From: a virus
Lineage: Duplodnaviria; Heunggongvirae; Uroviricota; Caudoviricetes
Length of the DNA: 64,000 bases
Virus record (IMG/VR): IMGVR_UViG_3300029841_000009
Span: 1-64,000 of that record
Strand: one strand, 5' to 3'
Shown piece after piece: positions 10,031-64,000 of this stretch. The number at the start of each line of letters is the position of its first letter. Position 1 is the stretch's first letter. The notes beneath the pieces are model-generated. The model worked only from the letters and a program-made list of their open reading frames with translations. It was not told where the DNA came from and did no database searches. The position numbers and the translations under genes are program-made.

Positions 10031-10031
10031 C

Positions 10032-10469: not shown

Positions 10470-10520
10470 CTTCTTTCTCCATTAGTGGGTCTGTTACGAC
10501 CCACAGGTTAATAACAGGCG

Positions 10521-11513: not shown

Positions 11514-11521
11514 TTCCTCTC

Positions 11522-12223: not shown

Positions 12224-12516
12224 TCCTGTTCACTGGCCTCTTTGGCCATCTTCAAATACTGTTCAGGGCAATGCGCCATAACGCGCTGAAACAGTTCCAG
12301 CGCCAGATTGCGTTGCCCCTCATTAAATGCCATTGCCATAGCGTCCATCGGTGAGATAGCGGAAAACACACGGCCTTTCTCCAGCACCGACCAGACAACG
12401 CGACGCCCCTGTTCACTGCTCATGACAAAGCGAATGTCATCAATTTCACGCTGTGCCATGTCACGTTGCTTACGGGCGTTTTCTTCTTTCAGTTGATCAT
12501 CTTCGTAATCTGTCAT
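12220..12516 (-). CDS. hypothetical protein
   Basis: 98-aa ORF overlapping the portal stop and scaffold start (translational coupling). Confidence 0.4.
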   Translation of the reverse strand: MTDYEDDQLKEENARKQRDMAQREIDDIRFVMSSEQGRRVVWSVLEKGRVFSAISPMDAMAMAFNEGQRNLALELFQRVMAHCPEQYLKMAKEASEQE

Positions 12517-14192: not shown

Positions 14193-14206
14193 TTCAATGA
14201 CTCCGG

Positions 14207-14413
14207 TTACTGACCAAGCAGCGTTTTACCGCTGGTATTAGCGGTTGATGTGTCGCCCTGAGAACCGGTAAGCAGCGTAGAACTACGACCAGCAGCAGCG
14301 CGACGGCGACGAGTTTCTTCGTCGCGGGCATCAACAACGGCGGCATCCTGCTCCTGTGGTGCTGCCTGAACTTCTGGTGTTGCAGGCACTGATGGTGAGC
14401 TACCCATGCACAT
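14207..14413 (-). CDS. small low-complexity ORF upstream of portal
   Basis: 68-aa Ala/Thr/Gln-rich ORF; weak coding evidence. Confidence 0.2.
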   Translation of the reverse strand: MCMGSSPSVPATPEVQAAPQEQDAAVVDARDEETRRRRAAAGRSSTLLTGSQGDTSTANTSGKTLLGQ

Positions 14414-14840
14414 ATCAATGACTCCGTACGCAATTAAATTATTACCAATTTAACCACATATGATTTATTTATCGTAGATAGTTGACATTTAACGCACAAA
14501 TTATTACCTTTCAGGTAACCAAAGAATTCATTCCGGTTACTAACCTGACTGGCTTGTCGTTAAATTGAACAGGTGGAGTGAGCTTTTATTTTGAGCAGTA
14601 CGGCGTATGGCACATGCGCCGATAGCGGTCTGGATACGTTTAAGGGGCACCCTCCCTGGCTGTGGCAAACGAACCAGGTAGCCGGAATGTGCAAGTCGAG
14701 CGGTTTTATTCCGCGCACGGGGATTCACCATCCCGGCGATTCGGTGTGACGCCTCGGAAGAGACGAGGGTACAACGATGAGAGCATTTATGGAGCCGCGA
14801 CAAAGTGTGGCGCCTTAACAGGCTAAGTGCTCTCAGCGTT

Positions 14841-14917
14841 GTGGCATTAGCTCAGTCGGACAGAGCAACCGCCTTCTAAGCGGTTGGTCGCAGGTTCGAA
14901 TCCTGCATGCCACGCCA
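14841..14917 (+). tRNA. tRNA-Arg (anticodon UCU), CCA-encoded
   Basis: Cloverleaf traced by hand: acceptor GTGGCAT/ATGCCAC, D-arm GCTC/GAGC, anticodon stem ACCGC/GCGGT with loop CTTCTAA, T-arm GCAGG-TTCGAAT-CCTGC, discriminator G and CCA; closely resembles E. coli argU. Confidence 0.85.
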
Positions 14918-15115
14918 GAATCACGCCTAAGGACCGTGATGCCAGAAGTTCCAGGTGCTTGGCGGTGATGGTTTCCCTTGAAGGACTATCACCACCCTTT
15001 TTACAGCAGGACGCCATTGCGATGACTTCATGCTGTAAACCAGTACAGCCACGGAAGGCATAACTCATTGCTTCCAGTTCGCCCGATTCGCCGGGCATTT
15101 TTTTAAGGTGAGATT

Positions 15116-15487
15116 ATGAACGACCAGCAAATCGAAAAAGAAATCGTTGAGAAAGGCAAAACGGCACCGCGCGTTACGCCAGACCATATCGAAGGCATTA
15201 TTGCTCAGGAGGCATATTTCACAGCAGAAGATGGTGCCTTTGGCAAAGCCATAAAAGAGAAACATACTGGCGGAGAGGTAAACTACCAGCCGCACGAATC
15301 ACTTTCTCTGCTGACGTTCTGCGTCCTGGTGCTGCGCAACGGCTTCACCGTCACCGGAGAGAGCGCCTGTGCAAGCCCGGAAAACTTTGATGCGGAAATT
15401 GGTCGGAAGATTGCCCGGCAGAATGCTGTAAACAAAATCTGGATGCTCGAAGGTTACTTGCTGAAGCAGAAGCTAAGCGAGCAATAA
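15116..15487 (+). CDS. conserved hypothetical phage protein (moron, same strand as tRNA)
   Basis: 123-aa ORF on the opposite strand to the flanking structural operon; followed by a hairpin plus T-run. Confidence 0.5.
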   Translation: MNDQQIEKEIVEKGKTAPRVTPDHIEGIIAQEAYFTAEDGAFGKAIKEKHTGGEVNYQPHESLSLLTFCVLVLRNGFTVTGESACASPENFDAEIGRKIARQNAVNKIWMLEGYLLKQKLSEQ

Positions 15488-15504
15488 CGCCGTGACATGT
15501 CACA

Positions 15505-15537
15505 ATCAGCCAGCCTATGAGCTGGCTTTGTTTTATC
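15505..15537 (+). terminator. rho-independent terminator
   Basis: Hairpin AGCCAGC-CTATGA-GCTGGCT followed by TTGTTTTAT just after the 123-aa ORF. Confidence 0.4.
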
Positions 15538-15577
15538 CTCACCAGAGGATATCAGCAGCATTATCCCATCCAGCGGA

Positions 15578-17053
15578 TTAAGCATAGGGATCGTAATCTG
15601 TGATGGCTTTGCCTTGCTGGTTCTGCTGCCCGGGAATTCGCAGACGCTTCGACACAGGGAACGCAAACGTCAGCAGTAGCGCATCGCCTTTACCAGGAGA
15701 ACGCCCAAGTCGCTCTTTGATATCTTCCTTCGGTTCGATAACGATTTTACCGTCCACGCGAACTTTGTACTCTGCCGTCGACAGGTCGTCCGCTGTTTCC
15801 TGGTCATCCAGCATGCCGCCGAGCCTCAGCCATGTCTTGCATGAGTTGAACATCTCCCCACGCTTGTTGAGCATCTGCGGGTCAGTAGACGCGCCACCGA
15901 ACGGAACAAGTTGCCATGTACGACCCCAGCCGTCACCGATTGACTTCAAACCGGTTCCGTAACCGAAGTCGATGAACACCGCGTCAGCCTGATACTGGTC
16001 TTCAAAGTCAGCGATACGCTTCGCCATAATCAGATCGTCGGTAGTCTTGTTGCCAGTCCACAGCACCTTACTGTGTAGCCCCTGCCGCAGGTATATCACC
16101 GCGTCATCAACGCCTGAATATGCCGGGTCAACACCGATTATCACCGGAGCATGTGCAACCTGCGCAGCGGTTACCACCCGTTTCATTGCCTCGTCAGTAA
16201 GACCGGTAGGGATAAACTGCAATTCAGATGCATCAGGGAATATGCCACGCACACGGATTTTAACGAAGTCGCTATCTTCCCCGTAGTCATCAACCCATTT
16301 CTGCAACTGCTGTTTGTTGGTGCCTTCCACCGTCCTGCTGTCAATCTGCGCAGTTTTCCAGCGGTGTTTGTATTTGCGGAAACATTCACGGAAACGCCCG
16401 GTGTTACGTGTAGGGTTTCCGAAAGCCACCCAGATAATCTCAGTGTCTTCGTCCGTTAGCGCACCCTCGGCAACTTCCCACACCAGATCCGCAATGTTCG
16501 ACGCTTCATCAAATACCACAATGATGCGTTTACGCTCGTTGTGTAGTCCGGCGAATGCCTCAGTGTTGTGCTCAGACCAGGGGATTGCGTCAGCTCGCCA
16601 CCGCTTGTCGTGCCCAGGGTCATTGCTGTACATCGCGGTAGCGGTACAGGTAAACCAGTCTTTCGTGATAGCAAGGTTTGACCACTTGATAATTTCCGGC
16701 CAGGTCTTCGTTCGTAGCTGGTTGTCGGTGTTGGCGGTCACCACGACCTTACAATCCTCGCAAGTGGACATGCCCCAGTTGATCAGCATTGAGATGAATG
16801 CGGATTTACCAATACCGTGACCAGAAGCACGTGCCAGCATAAGCGGCTGATATCGCGTCTCTGGATTCTGCAGGTGATCACGTATCTCTCGGAACGCATC
16901 AGCCTGCCACTGACGTGGGCCGGTGGCATGTGCCAGTTCAGTCCCCTCTTCCCCCCATGGGAACGCATAGAGGGCATAGCCAAGCGGATCGTGAGTGAAC
17001 CCTGCAATATCCTCGATTAACTGCTCTTCAGGAGATAACGCTGTATCTGTCAC
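15578..17053 (-). CDS. terL: terminase large subunit
   Basis: 491 aa; Walker A-like GHGIGKS, Walker B-like VVFDEAS, C-terminal nuclease-like region; overlaps the small-subunit gene. Confidence 0.8.
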   Translation of the reverse strand: MTDTALSPEEQLIEDIAGFTHDPLGYALYAFPWGEEGTELAHATGPRQWQADAFREIRDHLQNPETRYQPLMLARASGHGIGKSAFISMLINWGMSTCEDCKVVVTANTDNQLRTKTWPEIIKWSNLAITKDWFTCTATAMYSNDPGHDKRWRADAIPWSEHNTEAFAGLHNERKRIIVVFDEASNIADLVWEVAEGALTDEDTEIIWVAFGNPTRNTGRFRECFRKYKHRWKTAQIDSRTVEGTNKQQLQKWVDDYGEDSDFVKIRVRGIFPDASELQFIPTGLTDEAMKRVVTAAQVAHAPVIIGVDPAYSGVDDAVIYLRQGLHSKVLWTGNKTTDDLIMAKRIADFEDQYQADAVFIDFGYGTGLKSIGDGWGRTWQLVPFGGASTDPQMLNKRGEMFNSCKTWLRLGGMLDDQETADDLSTAEYKVRVDGKIVIEPKEDIKERLGRSPGKGDALLLTFAFPVSKRLRIPGQQNQQGKAITDYDPYA

Positions 17054-17727
17054 TGATTGCCATCCTGACGTTCTTTCAGTCTCTTCCTGGCTGCCGCTAT
17101 GCGATCAGCAATTGTCACATTCACATTAACATCCAGGCGTTCTTTGAATGCGTTGACGTCGACGTGCTTACCAATCAGTTCGAGGTTCTTCACCTTGTCA
17201 GGCCATTTAATTTTTTTGAGGATGCCAACCAGCTCTTTCTCGTCTCCACGGCCTTCGAACATGTCGGCCAGTTCGAAACCTGTCAGGTACTGCCGCCAGA
17301 CCTTAGGCCATTCCGAGACCGGCTTGATGCTCATATCGTCGTTGAGAATGTCAATCACGTCCATCTGGTCGATCTCCACCAGGCGCATGAGAACGTAATC
17401 AGCACTGACGCGCATTCGTTTGTTGCGCTCCTCCATCAACTCGGCAATCCGTTTCTGAATGCGTTCATCGCGCATCATGACACTGGCTTTAACTGCCGCT
17501 GTATTTGGGGAGAATCCTGCATTAATCGCAGCCTGAGTCTGGTTTTCAGGCGTTTTGATGTATGACTGGCAATAAGCCTCCTGCATTGCTGTTAGTGGCT
17601 TAAATTGCGTTGATTTGCGTTTATAGGTTTTAGGTTCAGCAGGCATCATAACCACCGTGGTAATAGTTACCGTTGTGGTAATAGTACCATGCAAAATAAA
17701 GCCGCCATAGTTGGCGGCAGTATTCAA
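17050..17727 (-). CDS. terS: terminase small subunit
   Basis: Motif QEAYCQSYIKTPENQTQAAINAGFSPNTAAVKAS typical of small terminase DNA-binding domains; true start may be the internal Met (MMPAEP). Confidence 0.6.
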   Translation of the reverse strand: MNTAANYGGFILHGTITTTVTITTVVMMPAEPKTYKRKSTQFKPLTAMQEAYCQSYIKTPENQTQAAINAGFSPNTAAVKASVMMRDERIQKRIAELMEERNKRMRVSADYVLMRLVEIDQMDVIDILNDDMSIKPVSEWPKVWRQYLTGFELADMFEGRGDEKELVGILKKIKWPDKVKNLELIGKHVDVNAFKERLDVNVNVTIADRIAAARKRLKERQDGNQ

Positions 17728-17767
17728 AACCCATCAAATTCATCATGCATAACCCACTCGTGACATG

Positions 17768-18121
17768 TCACAATATTAATTTCGTTTCATGCCAGCCTTT
17801 AGTCACCCAGCATTGCGAGTCACCATTACACGGGCATGAATTCACAGGAACTCTCTCGCCGCACTTACCGCAACGTTTTCTGCTGATCGATTTTATACGC
17901 CCGTGCACGCGCGCATCATCCTGGCGGATCAGTAACGCTATATACTCACCAAATTCGTAAGGCGCACGCCCGGGGCGACGTGTGGCACAGTTACGCTCCA
18001 GCATTTCAATTTCCTGAGCATCAAGCACAATCTCCAGCTTACGCACACCAGATGCAGCTTGTCTGGCTCTCTGAGCGGCTTTGCGCTCTGCTGCTGCCTT
18101 AGCCATTACCATATCCACCAA
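17768..18121 (-). CDS. hypothetical protein with Cys-rich C-terminus
   Basis: 117 aa, TTG start in the track; C-terminal CGKCGERVPVNSCPCNGDSQC looks like a zinc-ribbon. Confidence 0.35.
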   Translation of the reverse strand: MVDMVMAKAAAERKAAQRARQAASGVRKLEIVLDAQEIEMLERNCATRRPGRAPYEFGEYIALLIRQDDARVHGRIKSISRKRCGKCGERVPVNSCPCNGDSQCWVTKGWHETKLIL

Positions 18122-18191
18122 ACTTCACCAGACATGATTCTCGCAATCACTATCATCACCAAAGTGATAATCACAACTTTAACTGGCGGCA

Positions 18192-18569
18192 TCATTCACC
18201 ATCCTGCTCCGGCGGTTCTGGCAGCGGCATCCAGTGGGTTACCTCCTTGAGATACAGGTCTTCGCCACCACCGTCATCCCAAGTGGGCTTGCCATCATTA
18301 AACCAGTCGCCATATACGCCGACCTGAGTGTTGGGGATGCTTGGTGGGTAGTTGTTTTTAAAGTCAGCAGCTAACACATAGCATTGTCGCTCTCCCATTT
18401 CTGGCATTCGTTCACTACAGCTTATCCAACTCTCCGGAGTTACCGGAGAGTTGCCAGCCTCATACGCCACACGCATCCAGTGCATAAGCGTTTCAGTGCT
18501 CACACAGCCGCAATCAACATCAATTTTGCCGTGCTGCTGTTCCAGCCATTGCTCAAGCGTAGTGCTCAT
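18192..18569 (-). CDS. DUF551-like phage protein
   Basis: 125 aa; C-terminal VTHWMPLPEPP motif recalled as characteristic of DUF551. Confidence 0.45.
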   Translation of the reverse strand: MSTTLEQWLEQQHGKIDVDCGCVSTETLMHWMRVAYEAGNSPVTPESWISCSERMPEMGERQCYVLAADFKNNYPPSIPNTQVGVYGDWFNDGKPTWDDGGGEDLYLKEVTHWMPLPEPPEQDGE

Positions 18570-18799
18570 TTTTCATCCCCCCGATGATGCCATCTGCATC
18601 GCATCTCATAACACCCCCACTCAACACGAAAACCACATAGCCTGTGCAGATCCACCCACTTCTGCGCCATCGCTGGCGACGTGTAAATCACAGTGAATGC
18701 GTTATCTTCGTTGTCGATTTGCGTAAACGTCACTTTGTACAACAACCCACCGTCGACACATGCTGTGTTCAACGATTTATTGCTAATACCCTCAATCAT
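18566..18799 (-). CDS. hypothetical protein
   Basis: 77-aa ORF, 4-nt overlap with neighbours. Confidence 0.35.
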   Translation of the reverse strand: MIEGISNKSLNTACVDGGLLYKVTFTQIDNEDNAFTVIYTSPAMAQKWVDLHRLCGFRVEWGCYEMRCRWHHRGDEK

Positions 18800-19443
18800 T
18801 CGTACTCACCCCCCGCTGTTTTGAATTTGATCTCCGCTGCCTGCAATGCGTGTTCGACGTCGAAGCGGTCCAGCCATCCACCAAAGTGGTGCGGCATCAT
18901 TACCACCCGCTCACCGCTATTTATTGGGTGGCCCATACGGGGTTCGTAGCCGTCCGGTAACTCGACTTCCCGCGCTTCCAGTTCTGCTATGCGCTTCTCT
19001 GATGCTTCAAGTAACGCCTGCTTATCGCGTAGCGCTTCTTCCAGTTCAGCAACATGGCACTCACTATCAATAAGGTTGTTCTCTGCGGCTTCCAGCTCAA
19101 CACGCAGCTTCCCTACCGTTAGCGCAATATCCTCGTTCTCTTGGTCGCGGCGTTTGATGTATTGCTGGTTTCTTTCCCGTTCATCCAACAATGCCAGCAC
19201 GGTAACTGGATTGGCTGCGGCGATGAATTCAGCATTGGCCTGCTGTTCCATTTGGAAATCTTCATCGAAACCGCTTTCAGGATGCGCTCCTTCAATTCTG
19301 CAAATGGGAAGATATCCAACAACTTCACGATGAATTAGCGCATCACCAGCATCAAATCTCTCCTCTCCATATTCTAGCGACCACACACCACACGTTGCTT
19401 TTTCTGCCTTAGCACGCAGTGCCTGGTAATTAATTTCGCTCAC
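18796..19443 (-). CDS. Ead/Ea22-like protein
   Basis: N-terminus SEINYQALRAKAE and coiled-coil middle; GTG start preceded by AGGAGG. Confidence 0.6.
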   Translation of the reverse strand: MSEINYQALRAKAEKATCGVWSLEYGEERFDAGDALIHREVVGYLPICRIEGAHPESGFDEDFQMEQQANAEFIAAANPVTVLALLDERERNQQYIKRRDQENEDIALTVGKLRVELEAAENNLIDSECHVAELEEALRDKQALLEASEKRIAELEAREVELPDGYEPRMGHPINSGERVVMMPHHFGGWLDRFDVEHALQAAEIKFKTAGGEYE

Positions 19444-21688: not shown

Positions 21689-22756
21689 TCAGGCTTTCAA
21701 TAGCGATTCTTTCAGATATCGGGCATCAGCCAGGGCATTTGGAGTAATCTTGCGAACCCATGCATTACGGGTTGGACTCCACTTAAAGGCGCGTGATTTA
21801 AGCAGCGAACGAATGTTTGCCTCTGGTTTGCCAGGGAAATAAAACAGGATGCGGTTATCCTCTGGATCTATCTCCATAGAAAAGTCGTCGTATTCTTCGC
21901 GCTGTGCTCCTGTTACAGACTTGACCGATTCAAGCTCCTTAATACGGCTCTGTAGTCGTTTGATCTCGGCGTTATTGTTGCTCAGTGCGTATGAAGGGAA
22001 TCCGATGTGCCCACAGAAATCTCCGGCCAGTAACTCTTTGGCTTCGCTTTCTGTAAACCTGAGATCGATTAATGCAGAAAGCTGCTGTAATTGGTCTTTT
22101 TTGTATTTGCGAATGGCCTTATTTGCGGCCTTCATTTTGACGTGTGACTTCATGCAGCCTTGCAGCTTACGAAGCAACTTAAATAGCGCATCAGGATCAT
22201 CAGACGAAATTCCATTACGACCAACACCTGCGGCTTTGCTCTCGTAGTGTGATGCTTTACTTTCGCATTCAACAAACGCTTTTCTTAATAACGCATCAGC
22301 TTTAGACAAACGGCGGCGATGGCCTTTCGCGCTATAATGGTCAACTAAAATCGGCTGGCCTAACGGGATCACATCCAACAGGTCATGCGCTCGCTTATGC
22401 GCTACCGCACCTTCTTTTCTGGCTTTTTCTGCACGAGCAATATATCGGGCAAGACGCGCGTTCTGGCGTTCCTGATAGGTGTTTACGTAATCATCTCCGC
22501 GCTGCTGCTGTTCAAGCCATGCTTTGCGCAGATCTTCTGTTACGTCCACCAGCTCCGCAGGGATACAACCAGTTTGGGCTTCATAAGAGTAACCATCCTC
22601 ATAGATACGCCCATCATCTTCAACAAAGAAAAAGGTTTCGTGCTCATCGCTTTTGACCATACGACCATTAACATGGCGTAATAGGTAGCCAGTATCAGTG
22701 CTTAACAGGCTGTTAGGGTTGTTGATCCAGTCAGAAATAATTACTTGTTTATTCAT
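21689..22756 (-). CDS. conserved hypothetical protein
   Basis: 355-aa ORF driven by promoter-leader repeat copy A; followed by hairpin CGGCGGGA-N4-TCCCGCCG. Confidence 0.5.
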   Translation of the reverse strand: MNKQVIISDWINNPNSLLSTDTGYLLRHVNGRMVKSDEHETFFFVEDDGRIYEDGYSYEAQTGCIPAELVDVTEDLRKAWLEQQQRGDDYVNTYQERQNARLARYIARAEKARKEGAVAHKRAHDLLDVIPLGQPILVDHYSAKGHRRRLSKADALLRKAFVECESKASHYESKAAGVGRNGISSDDPDALFKLLRKLQGCMKSHVKMKAANKAIRKYKKDQLQQLSALIDLRFTESEAKELLAGDFCGHIGFPSYALSNNNAEIKRLQSRIKELESVKSVTGAQREEYDDFSMEIDPEDNRILFYFPGKPEANIRSLLKSRAFKWSPTRNAWVRKITPNALADARYLKESLLKA

Positions 22757-22870
22757 CAGATTTCTCCGGTTTAACCAGGGCGGGTATCGCTCGGTTTCGG
22801 GTATAACCTTAGGAAATTTTTTCCCACCTGTAAAGCACTTTTTATATAAATCTATAATTATATATTTATA
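22757..22870 (-). repeat. promoter-leader repeat, copy A (TTTACA-17-TATGGT with shared 5' leader)
   Basis: About 110 bp nearly identical to 32755-32870 and 63334-63449; lies immediately 5' of the 21689..22756 start. Confidence 0.7.
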
Positions 22871-27882: not shown

Positions 27883-27894
27883 ATTCAACCATAA

Positions 27895-27925
27895 AAAAGG
27901 CCCCCGAAGGGGCCTAATCGCTACT
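27895..27925. terminator. bidirectional hairpin terminator
   Basis: AGGCCCC-GAAG-GGGCCT with an A-run 5' on plus (T-run on minus). Confidence 0.5.
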
Positions 27926-28043
27926 TGCTGCTAATGTTTATCGTCACATTCAGAGCGTTATCAGTAATCTTCCAACCCTCCCCATGTGGCGTAAACAAAG
28001 CTCCAGTAACAACGATAAAAATACACATACAGTATTTTTTCAT
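27921..28043 (-). CDS. small hydrophobic peptide (about 40 aa)
   Basis: Internal Met of track ORF 27921..28103 gives MKKYCMCIFIVVTGALFTPHGEGWKITDNALNVTINISSK; ends at the terminator hairpin. Confidence 0.35.
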   Translation of the reverse strand: MKKYCMCIFIVVTGALFTPHGEGWKITDNALNVTINISSK

Positions 28044-28539
28044 TGTATGGCCCTTACAGGCCGTTTCACGGCATCCCCACCGACGAAAACAACGCGAGAG
28101 CAAGCACGGCTGCTTGTGCTTGCATGTACGGCAACGGAGAATCCTCCCCTAAAGTCGGTGCCCGGGTGCGAATCGGCGGGAAGGTCCACAGGTATTTTAC
28201 GATTATTTTAAGATTAGTTATAGGAAAGAAATTAAACGAAAAAACTCGTTTATTTTCACAAAATCAGTAACCTACCCACAATCTGTGAGTTTGCAGGCAC
28301 AACAAGAACCACAATTTTATGAAGCATAATAGTGGACTATTATTACCTTTTGGGTAAAATTAACTTGCTGCTTGTGCTTGCGTGGTTGTTTATACAACAA
28401 CGTAATGCTGAAAGGACCGCGAATCCGATCAGCACGAAAGAACCGTCCTCAATAGGGCGGTTTTTTTGTTTCTGCCTACCAATAAACCCACACTATGTGG
28501 TTGTCTCTGTTAAAATCCCGCCGTATTGACATAAATGCG

Positions 28540-28640
28540 CCATTGGTGGACACTTTCCGAGCCGTAGCAAAATCTACGGTCGGGATTGGAACCCCGATAA
28601 TCATCATGGCGCATACCGCGTTAGCGGTTTTTTTATGCGT
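28540..28640 (+). ncRNA. candidate structured regulatory RNA upstream of the antirepressor operon (immI/c4-like antisense RNA)
   Basis: ORF-free; successive hairpins (CCGTAG-caaaat-CTACGG; CGGG-ATTGGAA-CCCG) ending in ACCGC-GTTA-GCGGT plus T7; loop ATTGGAA is complementary to the downstream loop GTTCCAAC. Confidence 0.35.
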
Positions 28641-28799
28641 AAAGCACTGCTACACCCAAATTATGGTGGGGCGTGCGGGGGAGTCGTAAGACTCGCCGGA
28701 TTCCATGGTGACCGGTAGTTCCAACCCTGTACGTCTCACCACCCAATGATTGGAACCAGACGGTGGTGAGTATCCTTAACCTTTAAGGGAACTATCACC

Positions 28800-32376: not shown

Positions 32377-32757
32377 TTACTTAACGAGGAATAAAAATGG
32401 TTTATCGTTCGGCGGTGTACTCGGGGCTGGCTCGCTTTTGCTCATACGATCAGTGTACCAGGCCAGCTCCTTGTCAAAGTAAGCCTGATTAAAATAGGCC
32501 ATGAATGTGGTTTCAAATCCATAACGACCGCTAATACGCAGCATCTGATTGCCGTTCTCTGTTTCCAGATATACCTGGGCACGTTCCTGATTCTCCTTCA
32601 GCCAAGTTAAAGCCTCGTCGCACGAGGACACACGATACTCATCATCGTAGCCGTCATCGATGCGGCTTGAAGAAGAACGGCAAATCACGCCAACAGAACC
32701 AGCCAGGATAGTTTGAATTTTAAGGAAAGCGTTTTTGCGGATTTTAATCATGCTCAT
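32377..32757 (-). CDS. hypothetical protein (cargo of promoter-leader repeat copy B)
   Basis: 126-aa ORF starting right at the repeat. Confidence 0.45.
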   Translation of the reverse strand: MSMIKIRKNAFLKIQTILAGSVGVICRSSSSRIDDGYDDEYRVSSCDEALTWLKENQERAQVYLETENGNQMLRISGRYGFETTFMAYFNQAYFDKELAWYTDRMSKSEPAPSTPPNDKPFLFLVK

Positions 32758-32870
32758 CGGGTTATCTCCGGTTTAACCAGGGCGGGTATCGCTCGGTTTC
32801 GGGTATAACCATAGGAAATTTTTTCCCACCTGTAAAGCACTTTTATATAAATCTATAATTATATAATTCT
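32755..32870 (-). repeat. promoter-leader repeat, copy B
   Basis: Nearly identical to 63334-63449 and about 95 percent to 22757-22870; contains TTTACA-17nt-TATGGT and a GGAGA ribosome-binding site. Confidence 0.7.
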
Positions 32871-32919
32871 ATGAGCACAAAAAAGCCCCTTTGCAACAGG
32901 GGCTTATCATTCGTTCTGA

Positions 32920-42881: not shown

Positions 42882-43883
42882 TTAATACCCATTAATTACT
42901 CTTCGGACATCAATCGAGGTGGTATAACCACTAGTCCCAATTGAATGCACAGCTTTCGATATAAGATATTTTCCAGAAAATGAACCGAATCCCTCCAGAT
43001 TTATAGTTACACCAGCTACCAATCTGGTGTCTCCAACCAATACTAAAGATCCGGTATTTTGATATCTATTTTTAAGCCGCAAAGCAGCCTTTGCCTTACG
43101 TTTTGCTTCATCTAAATTAGCTACCAGTTTTCTTATCTTAAGATTCGACCCTTCTTCTACGGATGGATCTACCCAAGTATACGAAAGCGACTTTCTTTTT
43201 TTAGGTACGCGATATTTGCACGTGCAACTTTTATACAAATCTGTAGATTGTGTGCTAAAGCTATATCTGATTATCTCATCAATACCTAACGTAAGCGTAG
43301 CGATAGGATCTTTTTGCTCAAACATCTCTTGAGCAAATATTATTAATTGGCTATCAGTGACCTTTAACGACAACCCTTCATCCTGGCAAAGTCGATGGAG
43401 AAATTTTAAATCGCTTTCCTCCATTTGATCTTCACGCGCATAATATGGATTACTATCACCATCAATAAGAAACAACAGTTCAAGGTTAGCTAATTTAGCT
43501 ATAGAAGTTGCTATATCTTTAAGAGTTGTTTTTTCCCATGCATTACTTTTTAAATCACGTCTAATGCCTGATGAAACAGGAACAGAAACAGCAGTTACCT
43601 CAACCACAGAAGGTGGTCCAGAGCAAGTTATGCCATCTACCTGGAATTTCCCGCACTCAAGGACGATTTGATTTATAGGCTTAAAGCTCAAATCAATAAA
43701 ATCACCCTTTTTAGGTGTCCAGTCTCCAGACCATTTCCCATCATCATTTTTTAATATAATAGAAATATCATCGACCTGACCATCTTCATTATCTGTATAA
43801 GACATTGACAAAACATCAGGTGACATATGAGCGGTAATATTTACATTCTGATATATAACATCAAAAAGCGTTTTACGTAACAC
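42882..43883 (-). CDS. baseplate hub protein (P2 gpD / Mu gpP-like)
   Basis: 333 aa, position between the tail-X-like and spike genes. Confidence 0.45.
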   Translation of the reverse strand: MLRKTLFDVIYQNVNITAHMSPDVLSMSYTDNEDGQVDDISIILKNDDGKWSGDWTPKKGDFIDLSFKPINQIVLECGKFQVDGITCSGPPSVVEVTAVSVPVSSGIRRDLKSNAWEKTTLKDIATSIAKLANLELLFLIDGDSNPYYAREDQMEESDLKFLHRLCQDEGLSLKVTDSQLIIFAQEMFEQKDPIATLTLGIDEIIRYSFSTQSTDLYKSCTCKYRVPKKRKSLSYTWVDPSVEEGSNLKIRKLVANLDEAKRKAKAALRLKNRYQNTGSLVLVGDTRLVAGVTINLEGFGSFSGKYLISKAVHSIGTSGYTTSIDVRRVINGY

Positions 43884-44091
43884 TATTGCGTCTCCACGGA
43901 GGAAAATTGTTTACTGATATTGGCATAACCGGAGCATCAGGAACTTTAAGAATAATTCCCGCAGAAAAAAGCACCGTAAAGCGGTGCTCAGTATTAGCAT
44001 CAATAAGAAGATAAGACAGGTACTCATTACCATACAACTTTAAAGCGATACTATCCCATGAGTCCCCTTGAACCGTTCTATAATCATCCAA
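43873..44091 (-). CDS. tail protein X-like (LysM-like)
   Basis: 72 aa; YRTVQGDSWDSIALKLYGN matches the LysM-like pattern of P2 gpX. Confidence 0.55.
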   Translation of the reverse strand: MDDYRTVQGDSWDSIALKLYGNEYLSYLLIDANTEHRFTVLFSAGIILKVPDAPVMPISVNNFPPWRRNSVT

Positions 44092-46876
44092 AACTTAATC
44101 TCCGTTGTTGGAACATATGAGCACTCAATTTCTTCTCAAAATCAGAATATCCCGCATCTAATGCTCTTTTAGCTGCCGCCTCAGTTTCCTTTGGTGAACC
44201 AGCCGGAAGATTGATTACAGGTGAATAGGTTATTCCACCAGTCACAGCGTTAACGTTCTGGCGAGGTCCAGAAGTCCCAGCGGCAGATATCCCGTGAGGT
44301 GATAAATTTGATTGCCCGAACTTGCTTGCTATTGCATTCTGTAAGCTGTTATTCCTGCTAACACCTGATGCCAGAGTAGTCATTATTGCACCACCTGACT
44401 TTGTTAGCTGTGAGAATGGACCTTTTTTCGCGTCAGAGAACGGTAAATACTCACGTACAGAAGAAAAAACGCCTTTCACTTCATTAATTAAAGCATTTGC
44501 TTTTGATTTTATCCCAGTGATTAACGTCTCAATTATTTTTGCGCCTGACTCACTCCAGTTTATTCCAGATAAATAAGTCGTTACAGATTGGAATGCTCTT
44601 ATAAAGAGTCCAACTGGTGAAAAACGCATAAAAACAGATACCAGTGTATCTATGATTTTCTTTCCTGTTTCGCTCCAGTTAATGCCAGAAAGGTAATTTG
44701 TTGTAATTTTAAATGCTTTAATTAAGAACGGAAGCGGAGACATCCATTTAAAAGCACTAATTAATGTACTGTAAATTCTTACTCCTGCCGAACTCCAGTT
44801 TATGTTGGAAAGATAATCCCATGCTTTACCAAACATAGATATAATCCATCCATTGAGGTCAAAGTTTAAGATAAAGTTTTTTATAGCCTCAAATGATTTA
44901 ACTGTATATTCCTTAACAGAAGGCCAAACTCTGACAGCATAATCTCTGATCTTATCCCAATTCTGATAGAGCAATATTCCTGCGGCAACCAGCGCAGATA
45001 TAGCCATCTGAATCCACCCGAAGGGTGTTAGCTTTGTCGCTACAGATAAAGCCAGCATAGCTACCCTACACGCTATAACCACACTTTTCATGGTTAGAAA
45101 CGCACCTGCCGCCATCACTATCTGAGACACAAAATTGGGGTTGTTAGCTACAAATTCACTAATTTTTGTAATCAGCGGAACCAAAACACTAAGCGCGGCA
45201 TTCAAAGCAGGTTGCAAGGCCTGACCAAAACTTAATGATGCATTGCTAGCCTGAATACGTAATTGTTTCAATCGCTCCGCATTATCTTTCGTTATGTTGG
45301 CAAAATCGCGGTCAATAACAGCACTTCCAGCTCCAAGAGATGTTGCTTTGATTCTCTGGTATTCCTTCCAGTTTTGAATCATCGGACGAACAAAGTTCTG
45401 AACCTGCATATCGCCAAATAGTTCACCAAGTAACTTCTGATCTCCGTTCTTAGTCATTTTCATGACAGAATGCATTGCAGCTTCGAATGGATTCTTCCCT
45501 TTTTTCTGCGCTGTTGTAACAATTTTATATAAATCTACACCGAAATTTTTCTTTGCTTTTTTTAGTGTTTCAGGGGAAAGTATTTTTGCCAAAAAGTTGT
45601 TCATATTATTAGCAGCCTCATCCGAAGTTGCAGCCCCCTTGCGAGCTATCTGCAAAGCTGCACCCATCGTCGCGGCTGCTTCTTTACCTCCCATTTTTAA
45701 TGCCTGGAACTGAGCACCAAGCACAGGAAGATTTTTGGCCATATCTTTAAATTCAAAGTTCCCCTCTTTCCCTGCCTGAACCAGAATCCCCATTGCAGAC
45801 TTCATTTGAGATGGATCAATCTTCAATGAGTCACTTAATGTAAATGATGCTTTCGAGACATCGAGGATATCAGAGCCAGTAGCTGTAGCTGTTCGCCCAA
45901 TAGTTAGTAGATTCGCCTGAGCCTCTTTATAATCCTGCCCAGCAGCGACGAGAAAACCCTGAGCGGCCTGAATATCAGATGCAAACTGGTTGGTAGCCGT
46001 TCCGGTAACAAGCATCGCCTGCCCCATCGCCTGAACTTCTTCCGGCTTCATATCTGCCGTAAGACCAATCATTTTGTTTTCACGATTGAAATTTGCTGCA
46101 TTGTTAGCAGCAGCAAATGCACCAGCCGCTACAGCACCAGTTTGTAATCCTGACCTTACAAGTTGACTCTTTGCCTCACCAAGATGCTCTCGCTTCAATT
46201 CACGCTGCCTTTCCAACGCGCGGTTTAACTCCTCCTGAGCACGTTTTACTGCAAGAACATTTTTCCGTGCTTCAGCCAACGCATTTTTATAGCTGTTAAT
46301 TTTATCAATACGTTGTTTTTCTAATGCCCGGTTAAGTTCCTCCTGCTGTTTTTTCACTTGCTGAACATTTGCTCTGGCTAAAGCCAAAGCCGTTCTGTAG
46401 CGGTTAACCTGCTCAACGCTACGGGCCTGAGCCTCACGATTACGATCAATGCTGGCTTTAAGCTCTTTCTCTCTTGAGGCCAAAGCTCTGGCAGATGTAT
46501 CAGCTCCCTGATAGGCAGACTTTAAAGCGGCCAGTTCTTCACGCTGAGAACGTAGTGATGCTCGTAAATTTGATGAATGTGTTTTTGCCTTCTCAAAGTC
46601 ACGAAGCATCGCTCTGGTTGGATTGGCCGTGTTTTTTATTTGCTTCTGTAACTCTTCAACGCGAGCGGCAGCTTTATGATATTCGAGGGCAGTCTGTCCA
46701 ACCTTTACTTTTACAGATTGTAGCTTTTGAATTTCCCCATGTTCTTTCGTTAACCCAGCAAGCTCTGCATTTAATTTAGCAACAGCCTGATTAGCTGTAG
46801 TAAAACTTTTGGGGAGAGAGGCGGCAACTTTGCCGCCAATTTCAAAAGCCAGCTTAAAGTTCTTATTGCTGGCCAT
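44084..46876 (-). CDS. tail tape measure protein
   Basis: 930 aa; long coiled-coil N-terminal half, hydrophobic central segments, downstream of the chaperone frameshift pair. Confidence 0.75.
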   Translation of the reverse strand: MASNKNFKLAFEIGGKVAASLPKSFTTANQAVAKLNAELAGLTKEHGEIQKLQSVKVKVGQTALEYHKAAARVEELQKQIKNTANPTRAMLRDFEKAKTHSSNLRASLRSQREELAALKSAYQGADTSARALASREKELKASIDRNREAQARSVEQVNRYRTALALARANVQQVKKQQEELNRALEKQRIDKINSYKNALAEARKNVLAVKRAQEELNRALERQRELKREHLGEAKSQLVRSGLQTGAVAAGAFAAANNAANFNRENKMIGLTADMKPEEVQAMGQAMLVTGTATNQFASDIQAAQGFLVAAGQDYKEAQANLLTIGRTATATGSDILDVSKASFTLSDSLKIDPSQMKSAMGILVQAGKEGNFEFKDMAKNLPVLGAQFQALKMGGKEAAATMGAALQIARKGAATSDEAANNMNNFLAKILSPETLKKAKKNFGVDLYKIVTTAQKKGKNPFEAAMHSVMKMTKNGDQKLLGELFGDMQVQNFVRPMIQNWKEYQRIKATSLGAGSAVIDRDFANITKDNAERLKQLRIQASNASLSFGQALQPALNAALSVLVPLITKISEFVANNPNFVSQIVMAAGAFLTMKSVVIACRVAMLALSVATKLTPFGWIQMAISALVAAGILLYQNWDKIRDYAVRVWPSVKEYTVKSFEAIKNFILNFDLNGWIISMFGKAWDYLSNINWSSAGVRIYSTLISAFKWMSPLPFLIKAFKITTNYLSGINWSETGKKIIDTLVSVFMRFSPVGLFIRAFQSVTTYLSGINWSESGAKIIETLITGIKSKANALINEVKGVFSSVREYLPFSDAKKGPFSQLTKSGGAIMTTLASGVSRNNSLQNAIASKFGQSNLSPHGISAAGTSGPRQNVNAVTGGITYSPVINLPAGSPKETEAAAKRALDAGYSDFEKKLSAHMFQQRRLSFG

Positions 46877-46881
46877 TAGTA

Positions 46882-47064
46882 TTAATCCTCATTAAACACG
46901 TCAATCCATGCGACGATTCGCCTCAACCGAAGAGAAAGCCAGTAGGATATAGGTGTTGATTGAGATGATTGAGATAGAGAACTCGCGGCCCTCATTATTT
47001 GCTTATCAATAGGTTTTTGCTCATCAAAACCTACGAGAGCAAAAAATTCTGTACCTTTTGACAA
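46882..47064 (-). CDS. tail assembly chaperone, -1 frameshift extension
   Basis: Overlaps the 3' end of 47031..47312 in the -1 frame; slippery TTTTTTG at 47040-47046. Confidence 0.5.
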   Translation of the reverse strand: MSKGTEFFALVGFDEQKPIDKQIMRAASSLSQSSQSTPISYWLSLRLRRIVAWIDVFNED

Positions 47065-47312
47065 ACTTTAACAAAGTCTTTCGCTGGTAATCCATTCAGA
47101 TACTCTATTGGACGACCAATACAGCGAGCAGCCAAGGCTGCATGGACTTTATTATCAAGTGATGTTTGAACTGAAACATGCCCTTGAGATTGCAGTAAGT
47201 CCGATACCTCTAAAATATCACTGCCTTTTAGGTTGTCTAAATCAAGGTTGAGTTCAGTCACCGGCTCAAAGTCTTCAAAACGATATTCTTTACTTAATTT
47301 AACGGTTTCCAT
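47031..47312 (-). CDS. tail assembly chaperone
   Basis: 93 aa between the tube and tape measure genes; the ORF ends just after a slippery heptamer. Confidence 0.6.
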   Translation of the reverse strand: METVKLSKEYRFEDFEPVTELNLDLDNLKGSDILEVSDLLQSQGHVSVQTSLDNKVHAALAARCIGRPIEYLNGLPAKDFVKVCQKVQNFLLS

Positions 47313-47321: not shown

Positions 47322-47843
47322 TTATAAACCTAAATCATCACGAACGCTTTTTAATATATCTTCACCATCAAAGATACAAATAAAGTTCAACTTATCAATT
47401 TCCAGGACTTCTTTTCCATCAATAAATAATTTGATATAGAGAACTTCAAATTCATTCTCTGAATCAGTAGCCTTTGCCACCTGTAGCGAACCTAAATCCA
47501 GTTTTTTAGGGTTTAGCTTCATTGAAGCCCGAATAGGAACCGTTTTATATTTTCCTGTTCCTGCATCATAAACCTGCTGGCTACCGCGAAAATCTACCTG
47601 ATGCGATGAGGATAGAAATAATTTTGTACCAGCAGAGGTCAGAGTTCGCCATTTAAGAGAGACAGTCATTGGTTTGAAATGCCCCAGCGTTCCGCTCTCA
47701 AGCTCTCCAGCGATACCTGCACCACTAACAGTTTCTGTCATCATCTCAATTGATGGCAGCTTTGCGTCAGCAACACCGATAATACGGTTTCCTTCACCGT
47801 ATACTGTAAAGTTAATAAGTCTCTCAGGAATTTGATTGCTCAA
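47322..47843 (-). CDS. tail tube protein
   Basis: 173 aa immediately downstream of the sheath gene. Confidence 0.6.
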   Translation of the reverse strand: MSNQIPERLINFTVYGEGNRIIGVADAKLPSIEMMTETVSGAGIAGELESGTLGHFKPMTVSLKWRTLTSAGTKLFLSSSHQVDFRGSQQVYDAGTGKYKTVPIRASMKLNPKKLDLGSLQVAKATDSENEFEVLYIKLFIDGKEVLEIDKLNFICIFDGEDILKSVRDDLGL

Positions 47844-47859: not shown

Positions 47860-49323
47860 TTATTCAGAAAACAAGTTCAGCAGATAATCAGGATTATATT
47901 CCATGACGAACTCTATATCTCTGGCAGGTGAGAATGGTGTCATTTTTACATGGAATTTAACAATCCCGTCCATCAATGACGTAATCGTGTTTTCAGACTG
48001 ATCAAAGGTAACAACACCACCTGCAATATCCTGATTACCAGTGAGGCCGTTAAGCCAAATATTCGCACTAGTAACAATCGATTCAATTAATCGACGGTTT
48101 GCAGGATTGTCTATTTTTGACCAATGCGAAAGAATTAACGTATTACCCACCCAGTTAAACATACGTCGGCAAACACGAAATGCGTCTTTGGGGTCTGTAG
48201 ATGTTGGATAAATAGCATTACGGTTTCCCCATGATTTCCAACCATCAAAATTAAGGCTTGTTACAATCCCCTGTCCATTTAAGTAGTTTGCCTGGCTAAT
48301 GTTAAGCCATACCTCACTGCCATCTTTACGTACAGCACCGTCCATCTGTAGTTTTATATTTGACGGAGAACGTGATGGAATATCACCATACTGACTATCC
48401 AGCAAGCATGTTGCTGCAGCTAAATGGGTTGAGTGATGGTAAATATTGTCACCAAGTTTCACCATCGGCCAGCACACTGTCTGGTTAGCTGCCATATGAT
48501 TATTGTTCTGCTTCCATTCAGGAACAGCAGAATAATCACTGATAGTAGATTTATCAGTCGGCGCATCGGTGATAGCTTCTGCTTTGAACAATTCACTAAT
48601 CAGCGCAGCTTTAGCCGCCATTAGCTGGCCAACTTCACTATCAGAACTAAATCCAGGCGCAATCACTTGTCCAGGAACCAACTTGAAGCGGGGATACACA
48701 TCAGACAGTAACTCAAGCCCTGTATTGGCTTTAGTGTTGGAATCCACACCACCGATAATGTCATTTTTAGTTACGGCACCGGGATCAAGATGCGTATAAC
48801 TAACCTTAAGAGTAGCGTCTTTTTCGGTAATTTTTCCTCCGCTAATAGCGGTAATGACCGTATAGCCATTATCATCCAGCGCCAGCACATAATCGGTGTC
48901 AACCGTTAATCCTGCCGAATCACCATCTGCTTTTTTCACAACAACAGATTTATATAAGACACCATCGTTAGAGAGCGTACCTTTCCCGCCAGAAAGTTTT
49001 ACTACCTCATCAGGTACGTCTTTCTTATGCTTTGCTGGATCAAGCACATTAATAAATACAACTGGCGCAACACCATATATTCCAAATGCGACTTTAATTA
49101 CTTCGCTTAAAGTATATTTCTCGAAGTTTGTGCTATATCCTATTTTAGATACGGCCTCTGCGTATGTATAAGCAATGATAGGTTTATTTACCGCTGAGGC
49201 TGGATCTTCTAACTGATTAACAGGAGCTGTACCAAATGCGACAATCAACCCAGCACTAACTTGTACTGGAGGAGTTATAGATGTAGCCAGCTCAGATATA
49301 TAAATACCGTGGCGATATCCCAT
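47860..49323 (-). CDS. contractile tail sheath protein
   Basis: 487 aa, first gene of the sheath-tube-chaperone-tape measure block; size typical of P2 FI / Mu gpL. Confidence 0.65.
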   Translation of the reverse strand: MGYRHGIYISELATSITPPVQVSAGLIVAFGTAPVNQLEDPASAVNKPIIAYTYAEAVSKIGYSTNFEKYTLSEVIKVAFGIYGVAPVVFINVLDPAKHKKDVPDEVVKLSGGKGTLSNDGVLYKSVVVKKADGDSAGLTVDTDYVLALDDNGYTVITAISGGKITEKDATLKVSYTHLDPGAVTKNDIIGGVDSNTKANTGLELLSDVYPRFKLVPGQVIAPGFSSDSEVGQLMAAKAALISELFKAEAITDAPTDKSTISDYSAVPEWKQNNNHMAANQTVCWPMVKLGDNIYHHSTHLAAATCLLDSQYGDIPSRSPSNIKLQMDGAVRKDGSEVWLNISQANYLNGQGIVTSLNFDGWKSWGNRNAIYPTSTDPKDAFRVCRRMFNWVGNTLILSHWSKIDNPANRRLIESIVTSANIWLNGLTGNQDIAGGVVTFDQSENTITSLMDGIVKFHVKMTPFSPARDIEFVMEYNPDYLLNLFSE

Positions 49324-49613: not shown

Positions 49614-50099
49614 TTAGATAAACTCCTGAGACTGAATATTCTGAGGCTTTAATACTAGCCACGTTCCAGTTGCTTCCGTTATCCAATATGGATATGGTTG
49701 ATCATCAAACATTCGCCATCTGATATCACCCTGAAAGAGAAATTTCTCTTCAAGTAAAGGCTTCTCCTGAAAATGAAACATCATCCTTTCAAGAAGAGCC
49801 ATTACCCATTCATATCCAGTATGGTCCTCACAAAAACCACCTAGAAGAAACTTAACCTTAACTTCATCCGTTTCAGGCTGCATTCCTCCTTCCGTGGGCC
49901 TGATAATCACATGAGGAAATTCTGGCGGTTTATCTGGAGATGGTTGTGATTTAGGAGGCAAGTACCCTTTAAATATTGTTGGAACAAACAATTTAATATC
50001 GCTGTCTGTTTCATCATAAGGAGGCCCCTGCACTAATAAATCATGGAAAACCTCATGTTCCAACCGATTTTTTATTGCATCTATCAAAAGATTAATCAA
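49614..50099 (-). CDS. hypothetical neck / tail completion protein
   Basis: 161-aa ORF between the head and tail modules. Confidence 0.35.
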   Translation of the reverse strand: MINLLIDAIKNRLEHEVFHDLLVQGPPYDETDSDIKLFVPTIFKGYLPPKSQPSPDKPPEFPHVIIRPTEGGMQPETDEVKVKFLLGGFCEDHTGYEWVMALLERMMFHFQEKPLLEEKFLFQGDIRWRMFDDQPYPYWITEATGTWLVLKPQNIQSQEFI

Positions 50100-50440
50100 A
50101 TCGGCATTCCTCTGTTAGTATTAACAGTGAGAGTTATTTCCAATACACCAACATTATCTGATACTTCATCAATAATATAATTTTTACCGTTGATTTTCAT
50201 TGACTGGTCTTTGACAGGGAGAACAGGAAAATCTTTTCTTGAAACAAATAATATTATTTGCCCCTGATTTATTCCCTCTGCAAACTCAGCATATGAGCGT
50301 TTATTCCGCTCATGAATAAGGTCTGTATCAATAACGGCAAGGATATCCTTGCCGTCTATGTTATATGTATCGGCAAACTCTTTTTCATTGAGGAATATTG
50401 CAGAAATATCTTGCGCTATAACCTCTTTGAAGGAGTTCAT
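50096..50440 (-). CDS. head-tail connector protein (lambda FII-like position)
   Basis: 114 aa, matches lambda gpFII in size and position. Confidence 0.4.
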   Translation of the reverse strand: MNSFKEVIAQDISAIFLNEKEFADTYNIDGKDILAVIDTDLIHERNKRSYAEFAEGINQGQIILFVSRKDFPVLPVKDQSMKINGKNYIIDEVSDNVGVLEITLTVNTNRGMPI

Positions 50441-50832
50441 TACTTCTTATTACCTTTTTTTTGCGTTGATTTTTTCGCATTACTGGTATCAGAAGTAGCT
50501 ACAGATTCAGATGAATCATCAGCAACCGTTTCCTCATTGCCGCCATCATCCTCAAACTCAACCTCGAATACACAGCTACCCGCCTCCGTTCGCGTAATCA
50601 ACCCCGCGTCCACAGCATCATTAACAGCAGATGCGTATCCATGCTCAAAAGCTAACTTAGCAGCATCATAGCCCCCGGCCGATGCCAAATCACCATCCTC
50701 TTCGGTGGCAATAGCATGTCCTGACGCAATCAGTTCGGCAATTCTGGAGTTATCCATTAGCCCATTAAGCAAACGGCCCGCTTTTAGCGAGCCGTGGCTT
50801 ATCGTATCAATGTTTTTAATCAGTCTGGCCAT
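50440..50832 (-). CDS. hypothetical head protein (lambda FI-like position)
   Basis: 130 aa with an acidic, low-complexity C-terminal half; follows the capsid gene. Confidence 0.35.
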   Translation of the reverse strand: MARLIKNIDTISHGSLKAGRLLNGLMDNSRIAELIASGHAIATEEDGDLASAGGYDAAKLAFEHGYASAVNDAVDAGLITRTEAGSCVFEVEFEDDGGNEETVADDSSESVATSDTSNAKKSTQKKGNKK

Positions 50833-63070: not shown

Positions 63071-63336
63071 TCATCATCTCCTGCCGCACATACAACCTCA
63101 CAAAAAAAATCAGCAGAATGTTTCTCCTTGAACGAATGACGCTCAAAACCGCACTCAATATCAGGCGCAAAAACATCCACCACATACGGTCTTTCAGAAT
63201 GTTTGTTTTCCCAACGATAAACCGTAGTGACGTTGAAATGTTTTAACGCTTCACGGAACTCAACGCTGCCAGTCAGGTTTTTTGAGGTCAGGTATTGCAG
63301 GAGGTTTTTTACTACTTCACGGTCTTGTACTTTCAT
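63067..63336 (-). CDS. hypothetical protein (first gene of repeat-C cassette)
   Basis: 89-aa ORF starting at the repeat. Confidence 0.45.
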   Translation of the reverse strand: MKVQDREVVKNLLQYLTSKNLTGSVEFREALKHFNVTTVYRWENKHSERPYVVDVFAPDIECGFERHSFKEKHSADFFCEVVCAAGDDE

Positions 63337-63449
63337 CGGGTTATCTCCGGTTTAACCAGGGCGGGTATCGCTCGGTTTCGGGTATAACCATAGGAAATTT
63401 TTTCCCACCTGTAAAGCACTTTTATATAAATCTATAATTATATAATTCT
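63334..63449 (-). repeat. promoter-leader repeat, copy C
   Basis: Nearly identical to copy B across about 115 bp including the start-codon context. Confidence 0.7.
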
Positions 63450-64000
63450 ATACCACTTGCCAGAGAGCATCATGCAACTGGATACTTCCATTGCACTGGT
63501 TGCCCCAGCCATGCCAACCATCAGGTAAATCACCGCGAGCAAACAGCTCAATACGAGGAACATCACCTAACAGCCTTACCAGCTTGTCACGAACCACATC
63601 AGGCTTCCGAGAATGCTCCAGACGAGGCGATGTAAACGACTGAATGATCCCCGCATCAAGGCGGGTCGGCAATTTGCCTTTTACCGCAAACAAGCAATCT
63701 TCACTGTTTGCACGAGTCATATGCCCCATCCCCATCACCAGCTTATCTGGTTGTCGGCTACCACATTTGTTCCATGTGAAGCCCTTCATGGTCATAAGCC
63801 TGAATCCCCATGCTTTCACCACCAGCAACGCTTCTTCTGGCTGAGTCGGAACCCACCACATGGCCAACAAACACGATTCAGGATTAGCAAGCTGCCAGAC
63901 AGGAATACGAGCAATATCCTCAGCTTTCATCGTTGGATACTTAAAACCAGCTCCACGATTCCCATCCTTACACTTATCTTTGTATTCCCAGGGGGGATCT
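63448..64000 (-). CDS. MT-A70-family N6-adenine DNA methyltransferase (5' end beyond window)
   Basis: Track ORF 63448..63930 stays open in frame to the window edge, where the upstream codons read DPPWEYKDK (the catalytic DPPW motif). Confidence 0.6.
   Translation of the reverse strand, partial: DPPWEYKDKCKDGNRGAGFKYPTMKAEDIARIPVWQLANPESCLLAMWWVPTQPEEALLVVKAWGFRLMTMKGFTWNKCGSRQPDKLVMGMGHMTRANSEDCLFAVKGKLPTRLDAGIIQSFTSPRLEHSRKPDVVRDKLVRLLGDVPRIELFARGDLPDGWHGWGNQCNGSIQLHDALWQVV

Follow-up and report, generated by a model that had tools for sequence, protein, structure and literature searches.

A programmed -1 ribosomal frameshift very probably operates in the tail assembly chaperone gene of a contractile-tailed phage-plasmid; on the comparative sequence evidence, we put the probability of this reading at about 0.9. 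The DNA that we analysed (the window; 64,000 nucleotides, positions 1 to 64,000 of the IMG/VR virus record IMGVR_UViG_3300029841_000009) contains a chaperone ORF of 93 amino acids (aa), the 3' end of which reads GTA CAG AAT TTT TTG CTC TCG TAG. The third base of AAT, together with TTT (Phe90) and TTG (Leu91), forms the slippery heptamer T_TTT_TTG, and the zero-frame stop codon follows two codons later. Most ribosomes would read Phe90-Leu91-Leu92-Ser93-stop and release the 93-aa chaperone. A minority would slip while UUU occupies the P site and UUG the A site: both tRNAs would move back by one base and re-pair with UUU and UUU, with the wobble position of the A-site tRNA as the sole mismatch, and the slipped ribosomes would continue with GCU CUC GUA GGU and onwards for 52 codons in the -1 frame, yielding a 143-aa fusion. 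By analogy with G/GT of lambda and E/E+E' of P2, we would expect the tape measure protein to be bound by the N-terminal part that the two products have in common and the tube protein to be recruited by the extension, and tail assembly to depend on the long product being made at a fixed, low ratio to the short one. The sequences themselves show the anatomy of the site, its family membership, the exact-phase conservation of the heptamer and the conservation of the -1 frame as protein; from them we infer the slippage itself, its efficiency and the roles of the two products.

Tail operon and overlapping frames

The minus strand carries all of the features at issue (chaperone, heptamer, -1 extension and tape measure). 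The 5' to 3' gene order on this strand is sheath, tube, chaperone, -1 extension, tape measure, X-like and D-like, with the following coordinates:

47860..49323, minus strand: tail sheath gene, 487 aa, named from related records
47322..47843, minus strand: tail tube gene, 173 aa, directly upstream of the chaperone; PF04985 Phage_tube (FII), E 3.5e-44
47031..47312, minus strand: tail assembly chaperone ORF in the zero frame, 93 aa, ATG at 47312 and TAG at 47033..47031; gpE/gpG analogue
47040..47046, minus strand: slippery heptamer T_TTT_TTG in X_XXY_YYZ phase; P site Phe90 UUU, A site Leu91 UUG
46882..47040, minus strand: -1 extension (E'/T-domain analogue), 52 codons from GCT 47040..47038 to GAT 46887..46885, with TAA at 46884..46882
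join(complement 47312..47040, complement 47040..46882), minus strand: predicted fusion CDS, 143 aa, made up of 91 shared N-terminal residues and 52 from the -1 frame
44084..46876, minus strand: tape measure gene, 930 aa, ATG at 46876; PF10145 PhageMin_Tail, E 1e-20
43873..44091, minus strand: tail-X-like gene, 72 aa; PF05489 at 21.1 bits, just under the 22-bit cut-off
42882..43883, minus strand: gpD-like gene, 333 aa; PF05954

Records that are about 99% identical over this region name the 487-aa product 'tail sheath protein FI' or 'phage tail sheath family protein'; in Pfam, the sheath protein (47860..49323, minus strand) had no match above threshold and returned only noise (E 0.31). A Shine-Dalgarno-like AAGGTG lies 6 nt upstream of the chaperone start codon at 47312. 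Between the chaperone stop codon and the tape measure ATG there is a gap of 154 nt. Fifty of the 52 extension codons lie past the zero-frame stop, the TAA that closes them falls 5 nt before the tape measure ATG, and the GAGGA Shine-Dalgarno sequence of the tape measure gene sits within the final codons of the extension. The -1 frame is open from 47064, and a 60-codon ORF that starts with TTG is listed at 46882..47064 (minus strand); the +1 frame at the site shuts after two codons. Within the 11-codon zone in which the chaperone ORF overlaps the open -1 frame, T_TTT_TTG is the sole in-phase X_XXY_YYZ heptamer, and both overlapping frames are placed between the tube and tape measure genes, as in the conserved chaperone-frameshift class. 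The peptide encoded by the -1 extension is ALVGFDEQKPIDKQIMRAASSLSQSSQSTPISYWLSLRLRRIVAWIDVFNED. The predicted junction peptide of the 143-aa fusion is VQNFLALVGFDEQK, and AASSLSQSSQSTPISYWLSLR is a predicted peptide from within the extension.

Profile searches place the short ORF among tail assembly chaperones. It passes PF10109 (Phage_TAC_7) narrowly, with 25.4 bits against a gathering cut-off of 25 over profile positions 1-78 of 79; this is the family of the tail assembly chaperones E, gp41 and gp14. All 13 of the family members in the chaperone alignment match PF10109 (best E 3.3e-09), and P2 gpE does so at 47.8 bits. The match of the 93-aa ORF to phrog_3140 'tail assembly chaperone' is much stronger than that to Pfam (E 8.7e-43), and RefSeq names the identical 93-aa ORF 'phage tail assembly protein'. 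Against phrog_3140, the 143-aa fusion scores 162.4 bits over residues 1-137 and the short ORF 147.7 bits; as the fusion outscores the short ORF and aligns to residue 137, the profile includes frameshift-extended members. The extension on its own matches phrog_30074 (E 1.7e-31). The fusion had no match to PF06528 (Phage_P2_GpE) at E <= 1, whereas P2 E+E' scores 76.3 bits against that family, and we therefore place the extension in phrog_30074 and not in PF06528. A sequence search of the PDB with the family profile returned nothing meaningful.

An earlier note on this DNA, which was made from the sequence alone, had proposed a -1 frameshift here. Its coordinates for the heptamer, 47040-47046, are exact and the X_XXY_YYZ phase is correct, and the chaperone ORF does end just past the heptamer, at a TAG two codons on (47033..47031). 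The site is real; the note left its strand unstated, and every feature concerned is on the minus strand. It had also described a -1 frame that continues for about 55 codons to the tape measure gene; the frame indeed stays open until 5 nt before the tape measure ATG, but its length is 52 codons.

Conservation of the site and its alternative explanations

Taken by itself, the window offers little contrast with chance. TTTTTTG occurs 21 times on both strands, compared with 24.7 +/- 4.6 in shuffled sequences, and is thus neither rarer nor commoner than expected; the chance of a 50-codon open frame at the composition of the window is about 0.05. Statistics from the window alone are only suggestive, because the heptamer is not enriched and an open frame of this length has that probability. 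Of the mechanical ORFs in the window, 43% have 40 or more open codons in the -1 frame, since a neighbouring gene is often found there. Scanning every window ORF for an in-phase heptamer followed by an open -1 frame does not single out the chaperone site. One other ORF passes the same mechanical filter: the 130-aa ORF at 50440-50832 (minus strand) has a lysine-rich tail with an in-phase A_AAA_AAA within its last ten codons, and the -1 frame past its stop is open for 115 codons, where the next ORF (50440..50096) lies. This is probably an ordinary arrangement of adjacent genes.

We assembled relatives from 43 IMG/VR loci, found by a scan with the alignment of chaperone homologues, and from the phages X29, KLER1-1 and P2; X29 and KLER1-1 were picked up by tblastn among GenBank phages, and P2 was fetched directly. 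Removal of duplicates left 21 distinct sequences in which the chaperone-to-tape-measure region is intact; the most distant share about 30% amino-acid identity. A scan of genome contigs yielded no confirmed relatives. T_TTT_TTN is present in the same phase in all 21 distinct intact relatives, P2 included. The A-site codon is mostly TTG and otherwise TTT, TTC or TTA, and the zero-frame stop lies two codons past the heptamer in most relatives and 4-15 codons past it in a few. In each of the 21, the -1 frame extends for 52-67 codons from the shift (47-65 past the zero-frame stop) and ends just before the tape measure start, whereas the +1 frame past the stop runs for 2-56 codons and is in most relatives much shorter. 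Conservation of the downstream frame in homologous phages, on which the earlier note had made its proposal depend, is therefore found for the heptamer, its phase and the extension alike.

Codon choice at the heptamer is restricted beyond what the encoded residues ask for. The base that precedes TTT is always T even though the codon to which it belongs varies (AAT, AGT, GAT, CCT and GCT, with GGT in P2), and none of the 21 relatives uses TTC for the P-site phenylalanine or a CTN leucine codon in the A site. In this alignment, such synonymous-site constraints are not explained by selection on the protein. These comparative data lift the pattern far above chance, with the phase of the heptamer held exactly across relatives that share only about 30% protein identity.

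The extensions align from the first residue past the shift. Immediately past it there is a [LIV]-G or G-[LF] motif, and TP[IV]xYW-like and P-[LI]-x-[ED]-L-x-x-[WYF] blocks come after it. In most relatives the zero-frame stop is formed from the last two bases of a hydrophobic -1 codon and the next base (xTA|Gxx, giving TAG), and this overlap of the stop with the [LIV]-G codons is an ordinary dual-coding arrangement. We compared the window with the clade of IMG/VR locus L009, to which it is 69-77% identical. In the extension we counted 9, 6 and 23 substitutions at the first, second and third codon positions of the -1 frame; 14 of the codon changes are synonymous and 14 are non-synonymous. The chaperone body, read in frame 0, has 24, 11 and 40 substitutions at the three positions. 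From the third-position bias of its substitutions, the -1 frame evolves like translated sequence. Together, the aligned motifs and the substitution counts indicate that the -1 frame is under protein-level conservation and purifying selection.

A conserved -1 frame could also be a separate small gene with its own start, either an internal ATG that gives MRAASS... or the TTG at 47064. The TTG-started 60-codon ORF does exist in the ORF list, the KLER1-1 record has a separate 'hypothetical protein' at the corresponding place, and phrog_30074 stands alone as a family of about 62 positions. We nevertheless consider such a gene very improbable. No start is conserved: the methionine at extension position 16 is missing from X29 and KLER1-1, and the extensions of two IMG/VR loci (L032 and L033) lack any methionine. 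Amino-acid conservation starts at the first codon past the heptamer, upstream of any candidate start; no Shine-Dalgarno sequence precedes either the TTG at 47064 or the internal ATG; and an independent gene leaves the exact-phase conservation of the heptamer unexplained. That conservation also bears on slippage of RNA polymerase on the T6 run, which would produce mRNAs one base longer or shorter, with the fusion made from the edited transcripts. Productive transcriptional slippage in bacteria generally needs longer runs, of about 8-9 A/T or more, and the T6 run is short, although a homopolymer of 6-7 T is found in every relative. This route is documented as an alternative in other systems (reviewed in PMC5009743), but the X_XXY_YYZ phase that is kept in 21 of 21 relatives is needed by tandem slippage of the ribosome and not by transcriptional slippage. 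The argument from phase is weakened in that the conserved Phe-Leu residues constrain the phase as well. The P2 site has the same sequence and is described as a translational frameshift in the passages of PMC3091744 that cite Christie et al. 2002, and we hold a transcriptional origin of the fusion to be highly unlikely.

Sequencing and assembly could in principle have created the overlap, through a homopolymer miscall that splits one ORF, and a chance heptamer beside an open spacer or a decaying gene would look similar. The chance frequency of TTTTTTG in the window and the roughly 5% expectation for a 50-codon open frame leave room for such an origin, and homopolymer indel errors are clear in two relatives: the IMG/VR loci L029 and L031 carry multiple such indels through the chaperone gene, with T7 and T5 at the slip site. 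Yet at least 24 independent IMG/VR contigs and five phage genomes have exactly the same T6G run, and 71 complete E. coli plasmids, compared at the level of overall identity, carry the region at 95-100%. L029 and L031 are probably noisy assemblies and not counter-examples. In a third departing locus, L008, the sequence is unrelated right after the chaperone stop, and no tape measure homologue is present in the 1.5 kb of downstream sequence examined. None of the three is a counter-example. Coincidence, decay and assembly error are effectively refuted by the phrog_30074 match of the extension, by conservation across the 21 relatives, with the -1 frame kept as protein down to about 30% identity, and by the third-position bias of the substitutions; the chance that any of them accounts for the site is minimal. 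We therefore retain a programmed -1 ribosomal frameshift as the explanation.

Known frameshift systems and candidate stimulators

P2 offers the clearest parallel. According to the passages of PMC3091744 that cite Christie et al. 2002, ribosomes shift to the -1 frame at TTTTTTG in its FETUD tail operon. In its RefSeq record, E has 91 aa and E+E', a joined CDS, has 142 aa, and a 'site of -1 translational frameshift' is marked at GGT TTT TTG. The order of sheath FI, tube FII, chaperone, -1 extension and tape measure is the same as here, the T_TTT_TTG heptamer is identical and in the same phase (GGT TTT TTG in P2, AAT TTT TTG in the window), the product lengths are close (91/142 aa and 93/143 aa) and both short proteins match PF10109. 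The two extensions share a C-terminal M/L-P/S-L-x-E/R-L-x-x-W-like motif. Similarity between the P2 and window proteins is marginal (hhalign probability 3.9%, E 0.011), with the slip-site FL and the C-terminal motif lined up in the aligned columns. The systems differ in that P2 E' matches PF06528 and the window extension instead matches phrog_30074; that the zero-frame stop follows the heptamer by six codons in P2 and by two here; that the P2 extension overlaps the start of the T gene whereas the window extension ends 5 nt before the tape measure ATG; and that the genes past the tape measure are U then D in P2 and X-like then D-like here.

The closest annotated homologue is Vibrio phage X29 (NC_024369.2), with 45% chaperone identity. 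Its record annotates a 'lambda gpG analog' and a joined 'gpGT analog' CDS at AAT TTT TTG, the same codons as in the window, with the stop likewise two codons later, and its 57-codon -1 extension aligns with that of the window, TPIxYW included. X29 belongs to another host and another phage lineage, and the hairpin that starts about 8 nt past its heptamer is markedly more stable than that of the window (-24.8 versus -11.6 kcal/mol over 60 nt).

The lambda pair gpG and gpGT resembles the window pair in its shared N-terminus, in its location between the major tail and tape measure genes and in a low-level -1 shift near the end of the short ORF, from which the long product arises. The lambda heptamer is G_GGA_AAG, in a siphovirus, and is unlike the site here; lambda-type families were absent from the Pfam and PHROG matches of the chaperone and the fusion, and no sequence similarity was detected. 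In lambda, gpG and gpGT are made at a ratio of about 30:1, and neither product is found in the mature virion (PMC5009743); the underlying work is that of Levin et al. 1993 and Xu, Hendrix & Duda 2004, 2013 and 2014, in the summary given by PMC5009743. Because gpG and gpGT are absent from lambda virions, virions would be a poor sample in which to look for the fusion peptide by mass spectrometry, and infected-cell lysate is the right one; the earlier note had named both. Its assignment of the site to the G/GT or E/E' arrangement is borne out by gene order, by membership in PF10109 and phrog_3140 and by the identical in-phase heptamer of P2.

Downstream of the heptamer we found one candidate structure:

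47010..47033, minus strand: candidate hairpin with an 8-bp stem UAGGUUUU/AAAACCUA and an 8-nt loop, starting 7 nt past the heptamer

A 97-nt fold at the site has a predicted free energy of -21.8 kcal/mol (z -2.19), and the stability of the window hairpin is average, at percentile 0.40 among 50-nt windows of its own locus. Across the 21 relatives, the 50 nt downstream of the heptamer show no enrichment of structure (median percentile 0.40, Wilcoxon p 0.12), and the predicted structures are not homologous between clades. The hairpin at 47010..47033 is probably not a selected stimulator, and the ordinary percentile, the lack of family-wide enrichment and the non-homologous folds lead us to reject a conserved downstream RNA stimulator. 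Four IMG/VR loci, L003 (1776-1815), L032, L042 and L043, have unusually stable hairpins just past the heptamer (percentile 0-0.02 in their own loci), and the use of a stimulator may differ between lineages.

P2-like Burkholderia phages are described as conserving the site without downstream hairpins in the passages of PMC3091744 that cite Christie et al. 2002 and Xu et al. 2004, and in E. coli reporters many heptamers shift above background without a stimulator (PMC4066793); the lack of a conserved stimulator here agrees with both. The same reporter data rank UUN A-site codons among the more shift-prone and find weaker shifting at heterogeneous ZZN codons, of which UUG is one, than at homogeneous ones (PMC4066793). 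The heterogeneous UUG suggests a site of low efficiency, which would fit a chaperone made in small amounts.

Two local features might still modulate the shift. In most relatives GG(T) lies 6-7 nt upstream of the heptamer, where it coincides with the invariant Val87 codon after a codon that ends in G. Its action as an internal Shine-Dalgarno-like stimulator is a possibility; the Shine-Dalgarno stimulator of dnaX has a spacing of about 10 nt, longer than that of GG(T) here. We think it unlikely, although worth stating, that the stop two codons past the heptamer is itself part of the shift signal and tunes efficiency in a lineage without conserved RNA structure. The efficiency might in this way be set by slow termination, for example, or by the 8-bp hairpin that starts 7 nt past the heptamer.

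The host element and its annotation

The element that carries the site spans about 19.1-64 kb of the window. In complete E. coli genomes it occurs on plasmids only (about 39-57 kb; 75 places, none chromosomal), and the stretches of it that were compared share about 97-99% identity with Escherichia phage vB_EcoM-613R2 and with Yersinia phages vB_YpM_39, 41 and 44. This combination of plasmid-only occurrence and near-identical phages makes it look like a phage-plasmid. The records of plasmid pECO-b75 (NZ_CP009861.1; L049 in our set) and vB_EcoM-613R2 (ON470591.1; L001) contain the 93-aa ORF only and leave the 154-nt stretch unannotated, with no fusion CDS. Seventy-one complete plasmids match the region, and no extra CDS is annotated among the matches listed. 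The Yersinia phage records (OR545053-55) have only a 'hypothetical protein' over this stretch. A joined 143-aa CDS would correct the annotation of these near-identical records, and the main value of the result lies in annotation. An enterobacterial phage-plasmid clade thereby joins the elements with a P2-type T_TTT_TTG site; the case is an ordinary, well-conserved and unannotated one of a textbook tailed-phage mechanism, and it raises no new biological question.

The window is composite. Positions 1-19400 are about 97% identical to structural genes of TL-2011b/phiV10-like podoviruses, positions 19100-64000 match E. coli phage-plasmids of about 48 kb (the pECO-b75 type), vB_YpM_39 and vB_EcoM-613R2, and the switch between the two parts lies near ea22-like genes. 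This could reflect genuine recombination, two elements lying side by side or a chimeric assembly. An AT-rich repeat of about 119 bp is present three times in the phage-plasmid part, at 22752-22870, 32754-32872 and 63333-63451; the copies are 94-100% identical and may be repeated promoter or operator regions. Rfam matches above the gathering score in the same part comprise a ryfA-like RNA (27893-28189, minus strand), isrK (28561-28634, plus strand) and C4 antisense RNA (28659-28746, plus strand), the immunity RNA of the P1/P7 type. In the podovirus-like part, a tRNA lies at 14841-14914 on the plus strand, also above the Rfam gathering score.
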